A DNA stretch of 62,840 bases, counting the filler, from Basidiobolus ranarum (lineage: Eukaryota), in the NCBI GenBank assembly GCA_040143965.1. It is 3 parts of 3 records of this genome, joined end to end, with 100 filler letters (N's around TTAATTAATTAA, not from the genome) between each part and the next. Parts side by side here need not be neighbours in the genome. Positions count along the whole stretch, not along the records: positions 42,015 to 62,840 come from JASJQH010007096.1; 2 more parts are not named here. The stretch is one strand, 5' to 3'. Below, piece after piece: positions 20,920 through 48,845 of this stretch. Position 1 is the first letter of the stretch, and each line of letters opens with the position of its first letter. Made by a program: the position numbers and the translations under genes. The notes beneath the pieces are model-generated. The model saw only the letters and a program-made list of their open reading frames with translations, searched no databases and was not told where the DNA came from.

Positions 20920-21019
20920 NNNNNNNNNNNNNNNNNNNNNNNNNNNNNNNNNNNNNNNNNNNNTTAATTAATTAANNNNNNNNNNNNNNNNNNNNNNNNN
21001 NNNNNNNNNNNNNNNNNNN
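20920..21019. other. Assembly gap with artificial TTAATTAATTAA linker
   Basis: N-run, TTAATTAATTAA, N-run. The same structure occurs at 41915-42013. Confidence 0.97.
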
Positions 21020-39335: not shown

Positions 39336-40226
39336 CTAGCGCCAGATAAAATCAACCCCATTCCCAGTTTTGAAAGAGGCATAGGTTTTGATGTATGGAC
39401 CTCCGTTGAAATTGTAATTGCTAGTGTACACGCTACCATCAGATTCGATACTTTCAACAACTGCTACATGACCAATACCTCCAGTTCCCTGAGCACCAGG
39501 CTGCAAAACGATAATACACGGAGATTTAGGGCTACTGGAAACAGTCCATCCTTTTGACTTGGCATCGTTAGCCCAGTTTAGAGCATCACTTTTCCACTCA
39601 ACATGGTGACCGCTAAGTTGATGATAACGAGCATCGGCCCAGTCGGTACATTGTCCATTTTTGAATTGAAAATCCAATGAACTATCGGCGCTACTGTATC
39701 CTTGGCCCTTTCCTGTACTGGCTGGGCTTTCAGTTTTTGAATTCTTGGGGCTAGATACCTTCGAACCGTTTCCATTGCTGTTGCCATCTACATTTTCATT
39801 ACTGTTTCCATTGGTATTACCATTGCCATTGCTTTTGTTACTCCCATTTGTATTGCCATTGTTTTTGTTACTTCCCGCGGTGTTACCATTACCATTACTA
39901 TACCCATTGGTATTACCATTACCATTGCTTCTGTTGTTCCCATAGTTATTCCCGTTTCCGTTCGTGTTGGAACTGGAGGGTGATTGACCACCACTGTTAC
40001 CACCAGTAGTTTGTCCGTAGTTCTGCTTACCATTTTGATTTTGGTTGTTTCCATTGGAGTAGTTTGGTACATAGGAGTAGTTGCCTCGACGATTGATATT
40101 CGATCCAGTCGTATCGTCTAATCCCAACGATTCAACGTTGGAGCGGTTGATGTTCAATGGTAGGGCTTGCACGGCAAGACCGGATAAATAGAGAGAGATG
40201 ATAACATAAGAATTGATAAGATACAT
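39336..40226 (-). CDS. Secreted CHAP-domain protein with an Asn/Gly-rich low-complexity linker, intronless
   Basis: Signal peptide, NGNGNT-type repeats, then a C-terminal FKNGQCTDWADARY..DALNWA..GHVAVVE..SNYN domain. Paralog of 38166..38612. Confidence 0.88.
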   Translation of the reverse strand: MYLINSYVIISLYLSGLAVQALPLNINRSNVESLGLDDTTGSNINRRGNYSYVPNYSNGNNQNQNGKQNYGQTTGGNSGGQSPSSSNTNGNGNNYGNNRSNGNGNTNGYSNGNGNTAGSNKNNGNTNGSNKSNGNGNTNGNSNENVDGNSNGNGSKVSSPKNSKTESPASTGKGQGYSSADSSLDFQFKNGQCTDWADARYHQLSGHHVEWKSDALNWANDAKSKGWTVSSSPKSPCIIVLQPGAQGTGGIGHVAVVESIESDGSVYTSNYNFNGGPYIKTYASFKTGNGVDFIWR

Positions 40227-40783
40227 GTTTATACAGTCACTTTGCCAGAAAGTTGGACTACAAAGGTAAAGAAATAGAGTGAATTGAGAATCTCTAGCTG
40301 GTTAGTGCCGCCATATATACTATCGACGGACTAAGGTACCTTGCATCGACTAGCGTGATAATAAATTCCCCATTTCCCCCATCTAGTTGATTCAGGAACA
40401 TCGAGGTGTAATATTCATTGAAGAGTGAATTCTGACCTCTGCTATAGCTAGGGTGGTTCATTTTACTACGAATTTGTATTAGCAATCTATCATTCAAGCA
40501 AAATCCAAGACATTGTTTCCATTTGTTAATAGATTTATCGCACGCGAAACAGAAAAGGAGACCATTAATATACACATATTGCAAGGCTCTAGCCCTACTT
40601 GTAACGAGAACATCAAATAGACAAGAATATAAACAATTCTCAAGAAACATTTATATTGAATACAAATTGCTCTCTCCTAGAAATCTACATCTGCCCCGCA
40701 AGAAAGCTTTCACATATACAAGATAACGGATTGAATGGGGGGAGGGGAATCTACTAAATCAACACCGCCAAACATTTTGTAAT

Positions 40784-41490
40784 TTATGCAACGGTTTCAT
40801 TTCTACTTTTCCACAAAGTCGCCTCATTCTTTAAAATATCCCATCTGTTGCGACACTCAATGCTCGTTTTACCCTTTATTTTTTTGGCAATTGCTTTCCA
40901 ATCACCAAATCCAACAGTTTTGATTGCCTTGAGAAGTGCATTGTCAAGTCTCAAACTCCAATCCTCATTAGACGAATTTAATATCTGCGAATATCTAGAT
41001 CGTATCTGACCACTAGTATAAGTGGAAAATCCATTCTGTTGAATAACATCCCAAGAATCTCCGTGTTCTTTCATCATTTTTAAAAGGAGTTCGTCTTCTT
41101 CAGGAGTAAATGGTATTACCTCAGTAGTCTCGGTTTCTTCAACAGGTTGACTTTTTTCAACTCTGATTTCGGCATTCGGGGCTTTATTGGTCTTGGGTTT
41201 TTTACCTTCTAAAACTGGTTTTAAGGTAACCATATAATGATAGCGCAAAGTTTGAGGCTGTCGATTTGAAAAATGTTCAGAAAATTGGCCCCATTTCCTT
41301 CCGTACAACTTCACATAACGTATCAGTTTCTCATCATCTTCAGGTGTCCAAATTAAAGTACGTAATGCAGACGTAGTAGAGAAAGGTCGAACTTTTAAGG
41401 AACCTAAATTAAGGTACTTGTGTTAGGATAAGTACTAGTTTGACCTGTATTGTACTCTAACTTACTTCTTGTTAGACTCCACCAGTTCAT
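40784..41490 (-). CDS. Myb/SANT-repeat protein (3 repeats) with a putative mitochondrial presequence; exons 41490..41466 and 41403..40784
   Basis: Repeats WTPEDDEKL..YGRKW, FTPEEDELL..HGDSW and WSLRLDNAL..GDWKAIAKKIKGKTSIECRNRW. Intron 41404-41465 (GTAAGT..TAG) gives the N-terminus MNWWSLTRSSLKVRPFSTTSALR. Confidence 0.85.
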
Positions 41491-41914: not shown

Positions 41915-42013
41915 NNNNNNNNNNNNNNNNNNNNNNNNNNNNNNNNNNNNNNNNNNNNTTAATTAATTAANNNNNNNNNNNNNNNNNNNNNNNNNNNNNN
42001 NNNNNNNNNNNNN
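41915..42013. other. Assembly gap with artificial TTAATTAATTAA linker
   Basis: N-run, linker, N-run. Confidence 0.97.
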
Positions 42014-43090
42014 NGTGCCATTCTGGCTGGATTATGAAATATTTCCGGATTATTCTGGATCAGAGAGGAGTATATTTCGAAAGTGGAAATCCCCCTCTGA
42101 CGCAATTCTACATCCACGTCGCAGGGATTCTTCAGGAATTTCTCTATCTTGACTGCAGAAGACGAAAGTTTATCCTGCTCGTAATACATGATATGAAGAG
42201 CCTGGGCGATCATTTGAAAAGGTCTAGCTCTACGCGAATCTACCACTGACTTGAGTAATGGGAAGTTCTCTACAATATATCCTACAAGACTGGACATGGG
42301 ACTTGGGATGGCTTGGAGTTTTTCTAAAATATCCCAGAATTAGACTATTTCATGGCAAGTGATCCTGAACATACCTCCAGTAGTCAATGATACACCCAGT
42401 TGAACCCTGGAAAATATCTCATGCTGAATATTCAACGTTAGCCCATGGATAACCTCAATATTATCCTAAACATAATCACCTCCTGGTCGGAGGTCAGGTT
42501 ATAGTACTCCACTAACATACATCAGTCAATAACAAGTCAATAAAGACATGAACTTCACCAAAAAACTATCAATGATCCCACCACAAATGACATCTTTGTG
42601 CTGGAAAGTCTCCTGCTCCTCTGTTGTGAGACCACATTTTCCTGCAACATCACCAGCTACAGAAAAGAACTTCTTCGTTGGACGCTCTTCATACGGATCC
42701 AAATGTGGGATTTGATTGTTCACGAACCTAAAAGGGAGCTGAGCAACCTATTCAGCATATAGTGGGCTTGGGGAAGTACCTTCGAATCGCTGTTAATCTT
42801 TGCTTTCCATCGATACATACCCGTATTATCCTTCCATCGTGACCCTGCTTACATGAAAAGATAACCGGAGGTACGTAGTAATTTTTAATCACGGAGTCTA
42901 TCAAGTAGGACATCTTTTTCTCTAACAGAACACAATCAACCACTTAGATATGAACCGAGCCAATCATGTAAAATAATAGCAGTACATATACAAACCTGGC
43001 CAAACAATATCCCGTTGAAATGTAGGCGCTGAAGCTGGTTAGTCGTACAGAATTAAGTACATGGAGAAATTAGGCTTACAAAGTTCAACC
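42014..43090 (-). CDS. DUF262 (GmrSD-N/ParB-Srx-like) domain protein, intron-containing; 5' end uncertain, 3' end truncated by the gap
   Basis: PTFQRDIVWP|EKKMSYLIDSVIKNYYVPPVIF..CIDGKQRLTAI and IFSRVQLGVSLT match the DUF262 QR, DGxQR and FxRxN/Q motifs. Confidence 0.8.
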
Positions 43091-43975: not shown

Positions 43976-45260
43976 ATGTTTAAACTTCGCGCAGGTATTA
44001 GGTAAGTACACCAATTCCTTGAACAATTGAACTTTACTCATACTACTTCCCACTCAGTGTCCTATTGACCAAGGTGTCACCAAGCTTGAACGTTGTTCGA
44101 AATTCCTCAGTGAGAGCTTTCTCTGTTTCTCCTGTAATATGTAAACGAACCACTCCAATATTATATAATCCATTACCGAGCACTGAAGGTACTTTTTTTC
44201 ACCTATATTTTTCTCACCAATCTTCTTGAAATCTCGAACTAAACATATATTTTTTAGCTGAAAGAGTGAACGGTAAACAAAAAATAAAGAATATAGAGCC
44301 TTATTCGAGAGAGAAAAGTCCGTTGACCTCACTGTTAAATAAAAACGCGAAGTGGTCGGAAGATGTTCATACCTCAGATCCCACTTTCTTCTCCCGCTCA
44401 GCTCAGAAACAAAGTCCAAATATCCTCTGGATAGGTACTTTTCTTTTCGTTAAGAAACTCCATCCTTCTTTTTAAAACCTATTTATCTAAAACAACTGTA
44501 TTTTCAGGGTGCTCTGATTCTAGAGTTTCAGCTGAGCAAATTGTTGGCGCAGGTATTATTAAAGATATATATATGTATTGATAATTCTTGATATTAACCG
44601 ACGCGTTCTATTAGGTCCTGGAGAACTTTTCGTTCATCGTAATATCGCAAATTTATGTATACATACGGACCTTAACTGTTTATCGGTAATTCAGTATGCC
44701 GTAGACGTGCTTAAGATTGAACATATCATTGTGTGTGGTATGTGAATTCCTTTCTCCTTAATAATTATGTACATGTAAGACTAACCCTAACCCCTCCCCC
44801 CAAATCAAGGACATTACGGTTGTGGAGGAATCAATGCAGCCATGCACCCCGAACCCCTTGGACTTATTGATAACTGGCTAGTTAAGATCAAGGATGTATA
44901 TGCAGCAAACAAGGAAAAATTCGAAGGTATGTCCGATTGTTTAAGATTCGATTCAACAGAAATACTAATGACTGTTGCGAAATAGGTATCAATGATCAGA
45001 AATCAAGAGAGGACCTGCTCGCCGAATTGAATGTTGGAGACACTGTGCAATCCATTTGCCACACAGCCATTGTTCAACAAGCGTGGAAGCGTGGACAGAA
45101 GGTTAGTGTCCATGGGTGGATGTACGAGGTAGAAGATGGCCTCATCAACGAATTGGGCTGGTGCGTCAGTAGCTCCGAACAATTGGAATCTGTCTATGTA
45201 TACGAAAACCCGCGTCCTCTCAAGCATCAGCGACACAAGAACATCGAATCCAAGGAATAA
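43976..45260 (+). CDS. Beta-carbonic anhydrase, copy 1, with a probable mitochondrial presequence; multi-exon
   Basis: [20 protein letters not shown] leader, [40 protein letters not shown] and VHGWMY. Confidence 0.93.
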
Positions 45261-46072
45261 ATCAAGGAACTGAATTCATTGGTGAGATTATGCTGATACC
45301 ATCACCATACCATCATCATACCACCATCTATCATTGTTACAGATTATGATTTTCATGTAAAGTACTATTCAAGTATAATTAAAATTAATCTTGTTTACCC
45401 AATTGATCAAGTAATAGTTAACCCAATTTCGCTTATCTACAACTAATCTTGTTTATTTCCACTTGGCTTATATCACAGAAACATCACCATATTAGGCTAA
45501 CGCAATATTCCATATTTCGAATGGAAACAAACCTTAATAGGCATGCAAGCGTGTCACGAGATCACATATTTTCTGATCAGGGAAGTCACAAGGCAGTAAG
45601 TCCACAGATCCTGATTACAGACTAAGGTTCTAATTGGTGGTAATGATTGGGAAGAATTAGGTAACATTAGCATTGCATTTATTGGCATGCAGCTGTCATG
45701 CATGGTTGTGGGATCCTGTGATAAGCTTTATCTAAGGTCTCCACACGTATATATCTATTTTAATAGCGGATGTACGGGTATGCCGTTCGAAGGGATAACC
45801 AATAGCTTATTTTGGTAACAGTGCACAAGATAACCCAAACAATCGCTTCGAAATTATCTCAAAGAATGTCACCCCCTCCACTCGCCGCTAATATTTTCAT
45901 TGACAACCTAAACTGAGTACTCGATTCGGACTTTTTAATCATCCCATTTACACCACTCCTTTGGAAATAACCGATGCACCTCTGATTGGGCTGCAAACCT
46001 CAGTCTGGGTATGAAATATAAGAATGCCTCTGGGCCGTAGTATCACAATATACCGTTTACCTTACAATAATA

Positions 46073-46530
46073 ATGCTTACTAGAGATATTCCCCAAGGTA
46101 CGTGACTTATGGAGCCTTCGTTGGGTTTATGTTCTGACCTTGTTTCTTTATCCAGAAGAGAAGTTTGGTGTTATCCAAAGCATAATGCTCAGCAGGGAAG
46201 CTGCCCAAGGTAGGTGAACTACGAATCCTTCATCAAGGTTCTTTTCTGACCTTATTTATCCATTCAAAAGAACAAAAACTGGCTAGTATGCTCTTGAGCA
46301 ACACAGCGCTCAGTGGTAGCATCCCCCAAGGTATGTAAACTAGGAATCCCTCGCTAAGCTCACTCACTGACTTTATTTATCCACCCAGAGGAAGATAAGA
46401 AAGTTAGCATCATAAACAACATGCTGCTCGGTAGAAATAATCCACACGGTACGCGAGCTATAAATCCTTCGTTAAAACCGTTTTCTGACGTTGTTTGTCC
46501 ATTTAGAAGATAAGTTGGCTGGTATGCTCC
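46073..46530 (+). repeat. Four ~115-120 bp tandem exon+intron units
   Basis: Introns 46098-46155, 46210-46270, 46331-46388 and 46449-46506 are visibly homologous (GTA.G...CTA..AATCCTTC....CTGAC.TT.TTT.TCCA..AG). Each follows C(A/C)CA(A/C)G at the exon end. Confidence 0.85.
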
Positions 46531-47360
46531 AGAGAAACAAAGAGTGGGCTAGAAAGGTTCGATACGAGCAACCCAATTTCTTTTCGAACTCAGCGAAAGG
46601 CCAAAGTCCTAAAATTCTTTGGATCGGTTGTTCGGATTCCAGAGTTCCCGCTGAACAAATTGTTCAATGTGGTATGTGATTTTGGTACCCTTCTATGGTT
46701 GGTTCTATCGTAAATACTTAACCGCTAAATACACCTTAGCTCCTGGAGATCTTTTTGTTCATCGTAATATTGCCAACTTGTGTCTTCACACGGATATGAA
46801 TTGCCTGTCGGTGCTTCAATATGCTGTCGATGTTCTCAAAGTGGAGCATATCGTTGTTTGCGGTATGTAACAAGTCAGGATTGATGACTATTTTAAGATT
46901 ATTAATCCTATTTAATAGGCCACTATGGTTGTGGTGGCGTTAAAGCAGCCATTGCTAATCAATTCCATGGTTTGATCGACTCTTGGTTGTGTAACATCAA
47001 GGATGTCTACAGAGGTTGGTTGCTTCTTTTTTGAATTCTGGTAAAGACTGAAAACTGATTGTTATCTCAATAGCCAACAGATCTCATCTTGAAGCAGTCG
47101 AGGATATTAGTGCTAGACAAGATCTCTTGGTTGAACTTAATGTAGGTAACACGGTACATAATGTCTGTCATAGCCCAGTCGTTCAAGCAGCGTGGGAACG
47201 TAACCAACCATTGTCGGTGCACGCTTGGTGTTATGGATTGGAGGATGGCCTAATTCGTGAGTTGGGTTTGGTCGTTTCCAAGAAAAACGAGGTCGAAGCG
47301 GTATATAAAATGGAAGTCATAGATAAAACTCTTAGCACCAAAGCTAGTGAGTCCCACTAA
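46073..47360 (+). CDS. Beta-carbonic anhydrase, copy 2, with a repetitive multi-exon N-terminus
   Basis: [48 protein letters not shown] and [12 protein letters not shown]-terminal exons at 46073-46097, 46156-46209, 46271-46330 and 46389-46448. Confidence 0.93.
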
Positions 47361-47705: not shown

Positions 47706-48845
47706 ATGGAGACTAAATGGATTCAAGTCAACGCCGATTCCTACCCATTTACTTCTGATTTGGAAGTATCTCAGTACACCAACAACCTTCAGGATGACCC
47801 TTTATCAGAAGCAGCCAAACTATTAACCGACGACGAGGTAGTCGCTCTACCAACAGAGACGGTATACGGTCTAGCGGGAAATGCTTTTTCAGAAGCTAGT
47901 GTGAGGAAGATTTTTCAAGTCAAGAATAGGCCAGCAGATAATCCCTTAATTGTTCACGTATCTTCTTTGGAAATGTTAAGATCTTTACTTCCCGAAGGAA
48001 AAATCCCTCTTATTTATAGTGAAGTAATTAAGAAGTTTTGGCCCGGTCCTTTGACCATTCTTCTTCCTTGTTCGAAGTTGATCCCTTCCATTGTCACTTG
48101 TAATCAACCCACTGTAGCTATTCGTTTTCCTTCCCACCCAGTCGCCCGTGCTTTGATAGATCTATGTGGATTTCCCCTGGCTGCTCCCTCAGCCAATTCT
48201 TCCGGAAAACCTTCCCCTACTTTGGCTAAACACGTTTACAAAGACTTGAACGGAAAGATTCCCATGATAATCGACGGCGGTCAGTGCGACGTAGGACTGG
48301 AGTCTACTGTGTTGGATGCTCTAAGAAACCCACCAGTCATTCTTAGACCAGGTGGCGTAACATATGAAGAACTAGTCAAAATCCCCGGTTACTCGGAACT
48401 TAAAGTATACAAAAAAGATTTCGTGGATAAAGCCTTGGAAATGGTACCTACTACACCAGGTATGAAGTATCGACATTACTCACCTGAAGCCGAAGTGATT
48501 TTATTTGAATGTGAAGGAAATAGTATAGAAATCAATACGAAATTACTCGCAATTCGACAAGAAATTCAATCACTGGAAACCTCGGGAAAAAGTAAATTTG
48601 GAATTTTGAGAACTACTCCTATTGAATCCGATACTAAAGTTTACGGAGATCGAGAATATATTGAAATTGCTATGGGAGATGCACGTCAGCCTGAACAGGT
48701 GGCAAAGGAACTATTTAAGGCTTTCAGGTACCTTGATGAGTTGAATGTTGACTCTATTCTTGTGGAGGGAATTCTAGAGTCTGATGAGGGTCTCGCCGTT
48801 ATGAATCGTTTAAGAAAAGCCGCCTCTCGTATCATCAAGTGCTAG
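47706..48845 (+). CDS. SUA5: Threonylcarbamoyl-AMP synthase
   Basis: VALPTETVYGL, KNRPADNPLIVH, FWPGPLT, LAAPSANSSG, GLESTV, PGMKYRHYSP and AVMNRLRKAA. Confidence 0.97.
   Translation: METKWIQVNADSYPFTSDLEVSQYTNNLQDDPLSEAAKLLTDDEVVALPTETVYGLAGNAFSEASVRKIFQVKNRPADNPLIVHVSSLEMLRSLLPEGKIPLIYSEVIKKFWPGPLTILLPCSKLIPSIVTCNQPTVAIRFPSHPVARALIDLCGFPLAAPSANSSGKPSPTLAKHVYKDLNGKIPMIIDGGQCDVGLESTVLDALRNPPVILRPGGVTYEELVKIPGYSELKVYKKDFVDKALEMVPTTPGMKYRHYSPEAEVILFECEGNSIEINTKLLAIRQEIQSLETSGKSKFGILRTTPIESDTKVYGDREYIEIAMGDARQPEQVAKELFKAFRYLDELNVDSILVEGILESDEGLAVMNRLRKAASRIIKC

Follow-up and report, generated by a model that had tools for sequence, protein, structure and literature searches.

Introduction

Introns that have been duplicated within a single gene have been described in fungi under the name 'same gene duplication' (SGD) by Collemare, van der Burgt and de Wit (2013, PMC3609843). 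Their account covers 82 introns in 24 fungi, half of which are assigned to segmental duplication with the flanking exon copied as well, and reports that these introns are like regular introns in length and folding energy. Intron gain by tandem genomic duplication, or internal gene duplication, is treated in a review (PMC3443670, citing Gao and Lynch 2009), and the RdRp gene of potato has been presented as a case of intron gain by tandem duplication (PMC4974935). For introner-like elements, descriptions speak of hundreds of copies in unrelated genes, of about twice the length of regular introns, and of stable folds (PMC3609843, PMC4457414). At the level of exons, the duplication of symmetric phase 1-1 exons is the subject of a comment by Patthy (PMC6335736), and combinatorial arrays of symmetric mini-exons are described for troponin T (TNNT3, PMC2447309) and for the micro-exon genes of schistosomes (PMC4350168).

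Here we analyse an array of four homologous introns that opens a beta-carbonic anhydrase gene of Basidiobolus ranarum, located in a 62.8-kb stretch of DNA to which we refer as the window. By its sequence, the array fits the SGD class of fungal intron duplication by segmental duplication. Like the SGD introns of PMC3609843, its introns are homologous to each other within one gene, have ordinary length and folding, and are accompanied by copied exon sequence on both sides; within the 62.8-kb window we found no copies in unrelated genes. The array also departs from that description in several ways. Four copies stand in a row here, compared with the small numbers reported for SGD, and they are old, being 59-70% identical, whereas the SGD copies are described as near-identical. 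Furthermore, the copied segment takes in the start codon, unlike in the SGD description, and the host belongs to an early-diverging, Basidiobolus-like group that is absent from the 24 species in Table 1 of that paper (PMC3609843).

As in the tandem-duplication intron gain covered by PMC3443670, a within-gene duplication raised the number of introns while the reading frame was kept. In the AGGT model treated in that review, an intron arises from duplicated exon sequence with new splice sites, whereas here we see plain copies of a pre-existing intron, a category left out of the counts in its Table 1. We therefore rejected AGGT intron creation for this locus, as the alignment of the new introns to the pre-existing one covers their whole length, branch site included. 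With introner-like elements (PMC3609843, PMC4457414) the array shares several spliceosomal introns with a common sequence, but this classification was rejected as well: there are only four copies in the window, in tandem and 60-69% identical, and they are neither longer than the other introns of the gene (58-61 compared with 56-68 nt) nor stably folded. Finally, as in TNNT3 and the schistosome micro-exon genes (PMC2447309, PMC4350168), the internal exons are short, symmetric, homologous and includable or skippable in frame at the N-terminus. Those systems, however, are from animals and have documented alternative splicing, while the present array is known from sequence and its symmetry follows trivially from the copying of a phase-1 intron.

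The array leaves existing knowledge of how introns arise unchanged. What it offers is a clean record of a fungal gene that would have gained three introns and 58 codons through one event repeated three times. Both breakpoints are still visible, one of them having carried the start codon along, and the age of the copies makes it apparent that splice signals and frame were kept while the peptide drifted.

Structure of the carbonic anhydrase gene

The gene lies on the plus strand at 46073-47360 and comprises eight exons, which splice to a coding sequence of 870 nt with one terminal stop, encoding 289 amino acids. Exon 1 (46073-46097, 25 nt) consists of the start codon, seven further codons and one base, and its ATG is the first past an in-frame stop at 46019-46021. 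It is followed by intron 1 (46098-46155, 58 nt, GTACGT ... CTGAC ... CAG), exon 2 (46156-46209, 54 nt), intron 2 (46210-46270, 61 nt, GTAGGT ... CTGAC ... AAG), exon 3 (46271-46330, 60 nt), intron 3 (46331-46388, 58 nt, GTATGT ... CTGAC ... CAG), exon 4 (46389-46448, 60 nt) and intron 4 (46449-46506, 58 nt, GTACGC ... CTGAC ... TAG). Exons 2, 3 and 4 are all symmetric (1-1); in exon 2 one further frame is open besides the coding frame. Exon 5 (46507-46671, 165 nt) encodes helices 1-2 and the first zinc-site motif, Cys-x-Asp-x-Arg, and exons 6 to 8 (46740-46862, 46919-47014 and 47074-47360, stop included) complete the coding sequence. The introns outside the array are 68, 56 and 59 nt long, and all seven introns of the gene, inside and outside the array, are phase 1. 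The donor site of intron 7, GTTGGT, is unusual. The G+C content of the window is about 39%, and its short introns are of the type GTAYGT...CTRAY...YAG, features that mark the DNA as fungal. An earlier, sequence-only reading of this DNA had given the coordinates of the array, the lengths of its introns (58, 61, 58 and 58 nt) and exons (25, 54, 60 and 60 nt), the phases and the peptides, and all of these are correct.

Searches with the Pfam profile Pro_CA (PF00484, cut-off 25.7 bits) gave 57.3 bits for exon 6 and 37.5 bits for exon 8, together with a partial match of 22.5 bits, below the cut-off, for exon 5; the relative P0002 scores 183 bits. The motifs Cys-x-Asp-x-Arg and His-x-x-Cys, which supply the zinc ligands in beta-carbonic anhydrases, occur once each in the spliced protein, at residues 108 and 164, and both are invariant across an alignment of 10 relatives. 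By profile and motifs the gene product is a beta-class carbonic anhydrase, with a predicted activity in CO2 hydration. The best protein matches to exon 5 are P0002 (Basidiobolus meristosporus) and P0001 (B. ranarum), with 83-88% identity, the next best standing at about 62%. For the spliced protein, identity is 88.4% to P0002 over residues 73-288 and 84.8% to P0001 over residues 67-289. The protein collection searched contains no 100% match to the gene product, and a metagenome scan with the exon 5 peptide returned at least 80 loci with a best identity of 66%, none of those kept being Basidiobolus-like.

Four copies of one exon-intron unit

A repeat search and a MAFFT alignment in register showed that four tandem units of 112-122 nt open the gene. 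Each contains the ancestral first exon with its ATG and a phase-1 intron of 58-61 nt, and extends 10-12 codons into the exon that follows. Unit 1 (46070-46181, plus strand, as are all four), which is 59-69% identical to the other units, runs from 3 nt of leader through exon 1 and intron 1 into the head of exon 2. Unit 2 (46182-46302) runs from the tail of exon 2 across intron 2 into the head of exon 3, and unit 3 (46303-46420), the most diverged, spans intron 3 between the exon 3 tail and the exon 4 head. Unit 4 (46421-46542) joins the exon 4 tail, intron 4 and the exon 5 head, the last of these being the start of helix 1 of the enzyme. The units are 59-70% identical across their whole length, and these identities show no clear pairing that would indicate an order of duplication. 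In the repeat search the array appeared as four copies of 90 nt, spaced by 112, 121 and 118 nt, while Tandem Repeats Finder did not detect the array because the copies are too diverged.

The six pairs of array introns are 60-69% identical, with a mean of 65.5%. As a reference we used intron-like strings of the window, 51 of which matched the pattern, the 3 inside the array being removed beforehand; the array introns compared with the remaining 48 (192 comparisons) gave a mean of 51.7% (sd 3.8, maximum 59.5). Leave-one-out nhmmer profiles regained the omitted intron in every case (E = 4.6e-4, 3.6e-9, 4.1e-6 and 2.7e-7), and the profiles found no further copy of the array introns on either strand of the 62.8-kb window, the best unrelated match having E = 1.5. 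By these comparisons the four array introns are mutually homologous, and the view that they are copies of each other is borne out both by their identity in excess of other intron-like strings of the window (60-69% versus 51.7%) and by the leave-one-out profiles.

The exon sequence between the introns can likewise be traced to the copied unit. The tails of exons 2, 3 and 4 (the last 25 nt) give a gap-free alignment with exon 1, including its start codon, at a mean identity of 60%, against a null of 26 +/- 3.7%, and the observed value was reached by none of 20000 random sets. The heads of the same exons (the first 24-33 nt) match the start of exon 5 at 17/27, 25/33 and 14/24 positions, respectively, and with a further value of 13/27 the head matches span about 48-76% overall. 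Judged by these alignments, each internal exon is a fusion of a 'head of exon 2', which encodes the start of helix 1, and an 'ancestral exon 1', and one breakpoint is legible 3 nt upstream of the ATG, the other about 30-36 nt inside the second exon. The exons had been regarded as divergent spacers, a description that does not hold: these exons belong to the homologous unit (tails 60% versus the 26% null), and their divergence is similar to that of the introns. The array is, in its sequence, one segmental duplication repeated and not a set of repeats with unrelated spacers between them. Short matches further upstream, at 46008-46030 and 45984-45997, were considered as a decayed fifth unit and this was rejected, the unit and intron profiles having found nothing there.

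An origin of the array by tandem duplication is near certain from these comparisons. In the explanation that we favour, a segment was copied that would have begun immediately upstream of the start codon, taken in the 25-nt exon 1 and its phase-1 intron, and ended about 10-12 codons into the second exon. Three tandem duplications of this 5' segment would have led to the four units, each duplication adding a further copy of the existing intron and a micro-exon of 54-60 nt that is symmetric (1-1). This agrees with the sequence-only reading, in which tandem duplication of an exon-intron unit had created the three extra introns and a longer N-terminus, and both breakpoints of that duplication can now be placed.

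Conservation of introns and exons

GT, AG and the CTGAC branch site are unchanged in all four array introns. Identity among these introns is 58% in the interior and 88% in the splice-signal columns, so that the claim that the introns are at least as conserved as the exons (tails 60%) is true numerically, but the margin is narrow. It is also explained in part, as splice signals occupy about a fifth of each 58-nt array intron and the constraint on the peptide is weak. Compared codon by codon between units, second positions are the most alike (63-71%), ahead of first (56-62%) and third positions (44-48%), which is the ordinary pattern of coding sequence; these figures derive from about 100 non-independent codon comparisons. 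The units are only 31-38% identical in amino acids, and for this reason the peptide of the extension appears to be weakly constrained.

We also looked at the array at the level of RNA. No known RNA family of the Rfam type was found in it at E up to 1, the prediction of conserved structure in the array introns gave 0 consensus pairs, and the folding of the 501-nt array region is no more stable than that of shuffles (z = -0.53). With no further copies in the window either, these analyses gave no additional reason for the conservation of the introns.

Basidiobolus relatives

The database search returned seven Basidiobolus beta-carbonic anhydrase models. In four of five close relatives (P0001, P0003, P0004 and P0005) we see a single unit, i.e. 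a short first-exon peptide followed by the helix-1 sequence, and local alignments to these four begin at residues 64-67 of the window protein. The model of the closest annotated relative, P0002, begins exactly at the Met inside the last unit; either the upstream micro-exons were missed in this model or the species is without them. Two or more units were seen in none of the Basidiobolus protein models compared, although gene finders can miss exons of 54-60 nt. The locus is thus a likely trap for annotation, with exons short enough to escape gene finders and a model, that of P0002, which starts at the last-unit Met.

The two further models, P0092 and P0119, represent a different paralog. The window holds a second beta-carbonic anhydrase gene at 43976-45260 on the plus strand, about 800 nt upstream of the array gene; it is closest to P0092 of B. 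meristosporus, which has a long, presequence-like N-terminus, and to P0119. This upstream gene (43976-45260) has no exon-intron array. P0119 and P0002 lie on one shared 151-kb contig, and because this contig and the window both have the two-gene arrangement, the locus is syntenic and P0002 is likely the ortholog of the array gene.

Reading frame, splicing and translation start

Across the three internal exons the phase-1 frame alone is open, against 3 and 6 stops in the remaining frames, and 1.6% of shuffles of the internal exons were free of stops. Where the unit alignment covers exon sequence, every gap measures 3 nt. In a neutral-decay simulation, run at the divergence of the intron interiors (p = 0.26 per copy) and presuming a star-like history and neutral intron interiors, the frame stayed open in 17% of replicates and GT..AG was kept in three introns in 2.7%, a value that falls to 0.1% when a suitably placed branch site is included. 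Retention of intron 1 or 4 leads to a stop, as judged by reading the frame, and a direct reading of introns 2 and 3 places an in-frame stop at most three codons past the donor.

Because the signals survive, a single frame is open, gaps comprise whole codons and third positions are the most variable, these observations point to long-term selection for splicing and translation of the array, with the codon-position and in-frame-gap arguments resting on few, non-independent comparisons. Such selection on frame and splicing is expected merely from an upstream translation start, and a benefit of the extra peptide does not follow from it.

We consider it probable that an array built by duplication is read as a whole, with all of its introns constitutively spliced and a translation start at 46073. 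The four short introns would most likely be removed constitutively and translation would proceed from the first ATG (46073), the outcome being a 289-aa enzyme with an N-terminus about 58 residues longer than in the single-unit relatives. Use of all units is likewise likely, where splicing, start site and the role of the extension are what we infer from the genomic DNA. A TATA-like hexamer read at 46017-46022 on the plus strand, 51 nt upstream of the first ATG, is a putative promoter element. We also observed an upstream open frame of 19 codons (46024-46083, plus strand) that runs across the main start codon in another frame; this upstream frame is relevant only if transcription begins upstream of 46024.

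In-frame Met codons are found at residues 1, 19, 33, 58 and 73, one per exon. The first 222 spliced nt contain five ATGs, all in the coding frame and not one outside it (shuffle mean 2.5, P = 0.075), and each of the five has a purine at -3. The ATG-CT present in every exon had been put forward as a series of start-site candidates. We find instead that it is inherited, each exon carrying either a copy of the start codon or the Met-Leu of helix 1, and that it does not argue for a designed series of starts.

In an alternative that we regard as unlikely, the upstream units are a leader or decaying relics and translation begins at a later Met, e.g. residue 73 as in P0002. With a transcription start inside the array, or by leaky scanning, the 58-residue extension would be made rarely or never, and as all five ATGs are in frame and have a purine at -3, downstream initiation would always give an intact enzyme. 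The preservation of the splice signals and of the open frame in spite of about 35-40% divergence is difficult to reconcile with such a history (under neutrality, the signals would be kept in 0.1-2.7% of replicates and the frame in 17%), as are the whole-codon gaps in the exons, the greater variability of third positions and the placement of the first ATG after an in-frame stop and the TATA-like hexamer. The weak amino-acid conservation between units would fit relics, and the start of the P0002 model at the last-unit Met makes a downstream start conceivable also for the array gene, or else that model is truncated.

The predicted N-terminal extension

In alignments with solved beta-carbonic anhydrase structures the match begins only with the last unit, at residue 6 of the structure in the case of the E. 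coli enzyme (1i6o), and the Pfam Pro_CA domain starts later than the structure alignment. In the AlphaFold model of the single-unit relative P0001, which has a mean pLDDT of 69 and was built on an alignment of 10 sequences, residues 1-24 have pLDDT <50 and helix 1 comprises residues 26-44. Based on this model, the copied 'head' would correspond roughly to the first half of helix 1 and the 'tail' to an unstructured linker. A hydrophobic-moment test for an amphipathic helix in the extension gave a signal not above shuffles (P = 0.75), and we therefore do not propose that it consists of helix-loop modules. If translation starts at the first ATG, the extra residues would precede helix 1 of the dimerisation arm, and the extension is probably flexible and weakly constrained.

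Other fungal beta-carbonic anhydrases have comparable regions. For Nce103 of Candida parapsilosis, the N-terminal 42 residues are reported to be predicted as disordered and yet to promote tetramer formation (PMC12664589), and the N-terminal extension of Can2 is described as touching the active-site entrance (PMC8122340). In the accounts of Nce103, Can2 and CafA (PMC12664589, PMC8122340), as here, a variable and probably flexible stretch stands before the N-terminal helices of the dimer arm; unlike in those enzymes, the extension here is built from three repeats of the enzyme's own N-terminus. By this likeness, a role of the extension in oligomerisation or in access to the active site is plausible.

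A more elaborate proposal is that the array is a regulated combinatorial module, in which skipping of exons 2-4 would give up to 8 inclusion patterns, alternative starts would add further forms, and isoforms differing in N-terminal length would tune localisation, stability or oligomerisation. The N-terminal regions of fungal beta-carbonic anhydrases are reported to influence the oligomeric state (PMC12664589), and the sequence-only reading was right that the internal exons, with 54, 60 and 60 nt between phase-1 introns, are multiples of three and can be skipped in frame as far as the sequence is concerned; indeed, every pairing of a donor and an acceptor is in frame, and there are five in-frame ATGs. 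Exon symmetry and ATGs are, however, automatic by-products of copying a phase-1 intron together with a start codon, and all array introns are short (58-61 nt), with signals that are strong and invariant. Under intron-definition splicing as in fungi, short, strong introns favour constitutive removal over exon skipping. On these grounds we think it improbable that the array works as a module of this kind.

We are just as doubtful about a version in which the array is kept as a dial, be it that skipping and alternative starts grade the length of the arm and shift the oligomeric or regulatory state with CO2, or that the intron copies themselves were selected. If the intron-copy version were true, promoter-proximal introns would raise expression, which would explain interiors as conserved as the exons.

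It is hardly credible that a mobile or multi-copy intron family, i.e. an introner-like element or transposed intron, was inserted repeatedly in the gene, as the four homologous introns within one gene might suggest, given that exon sequence on both flanks was duplicated along with the introns, that the 62.8-kb window has no further copy (best unrelated E = 1.5), that lengths of 58-61 nt fit the other introns of the gene (56-68 nt), that conserved or stable RNA structure was not found (0 pairs; z = -0.53) and that descriptions of introner-like elements give them high copy numbers, a length above that of regular introns and a stable fold (PMC3609843).

Other features of the window

About 350 nt downstream of the array gene lies a gene for a Sua5/YrdC threonylcarbamoyl-AMP synthase (47706-48845, plus strand) without visible introns. 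The window contains runs of N, 44 nt each, arranged as two pairs whose members are 12 nt apart (20920-20963 and 20976-21019; 41915-41958 and 41971-42014), and the pair at 41915-42014 breaks open reading frames of the minus strand. A Myb-domain protein is encoded at 40784-41422 on the minus strand. On the same strand, the product of an open frame at 39336-40301 has a long Asn/Gly-rich repeat ahead of a CHAP domain (Pfam E = 2.2e-15), a family found mostly in bacteria. Horizontal gene transfer has been reported for Basidiobolus (PMC7466969). The Asn/Gly-rich stretch of this open frame is underlain by a DNA repeat at 39755-39956.
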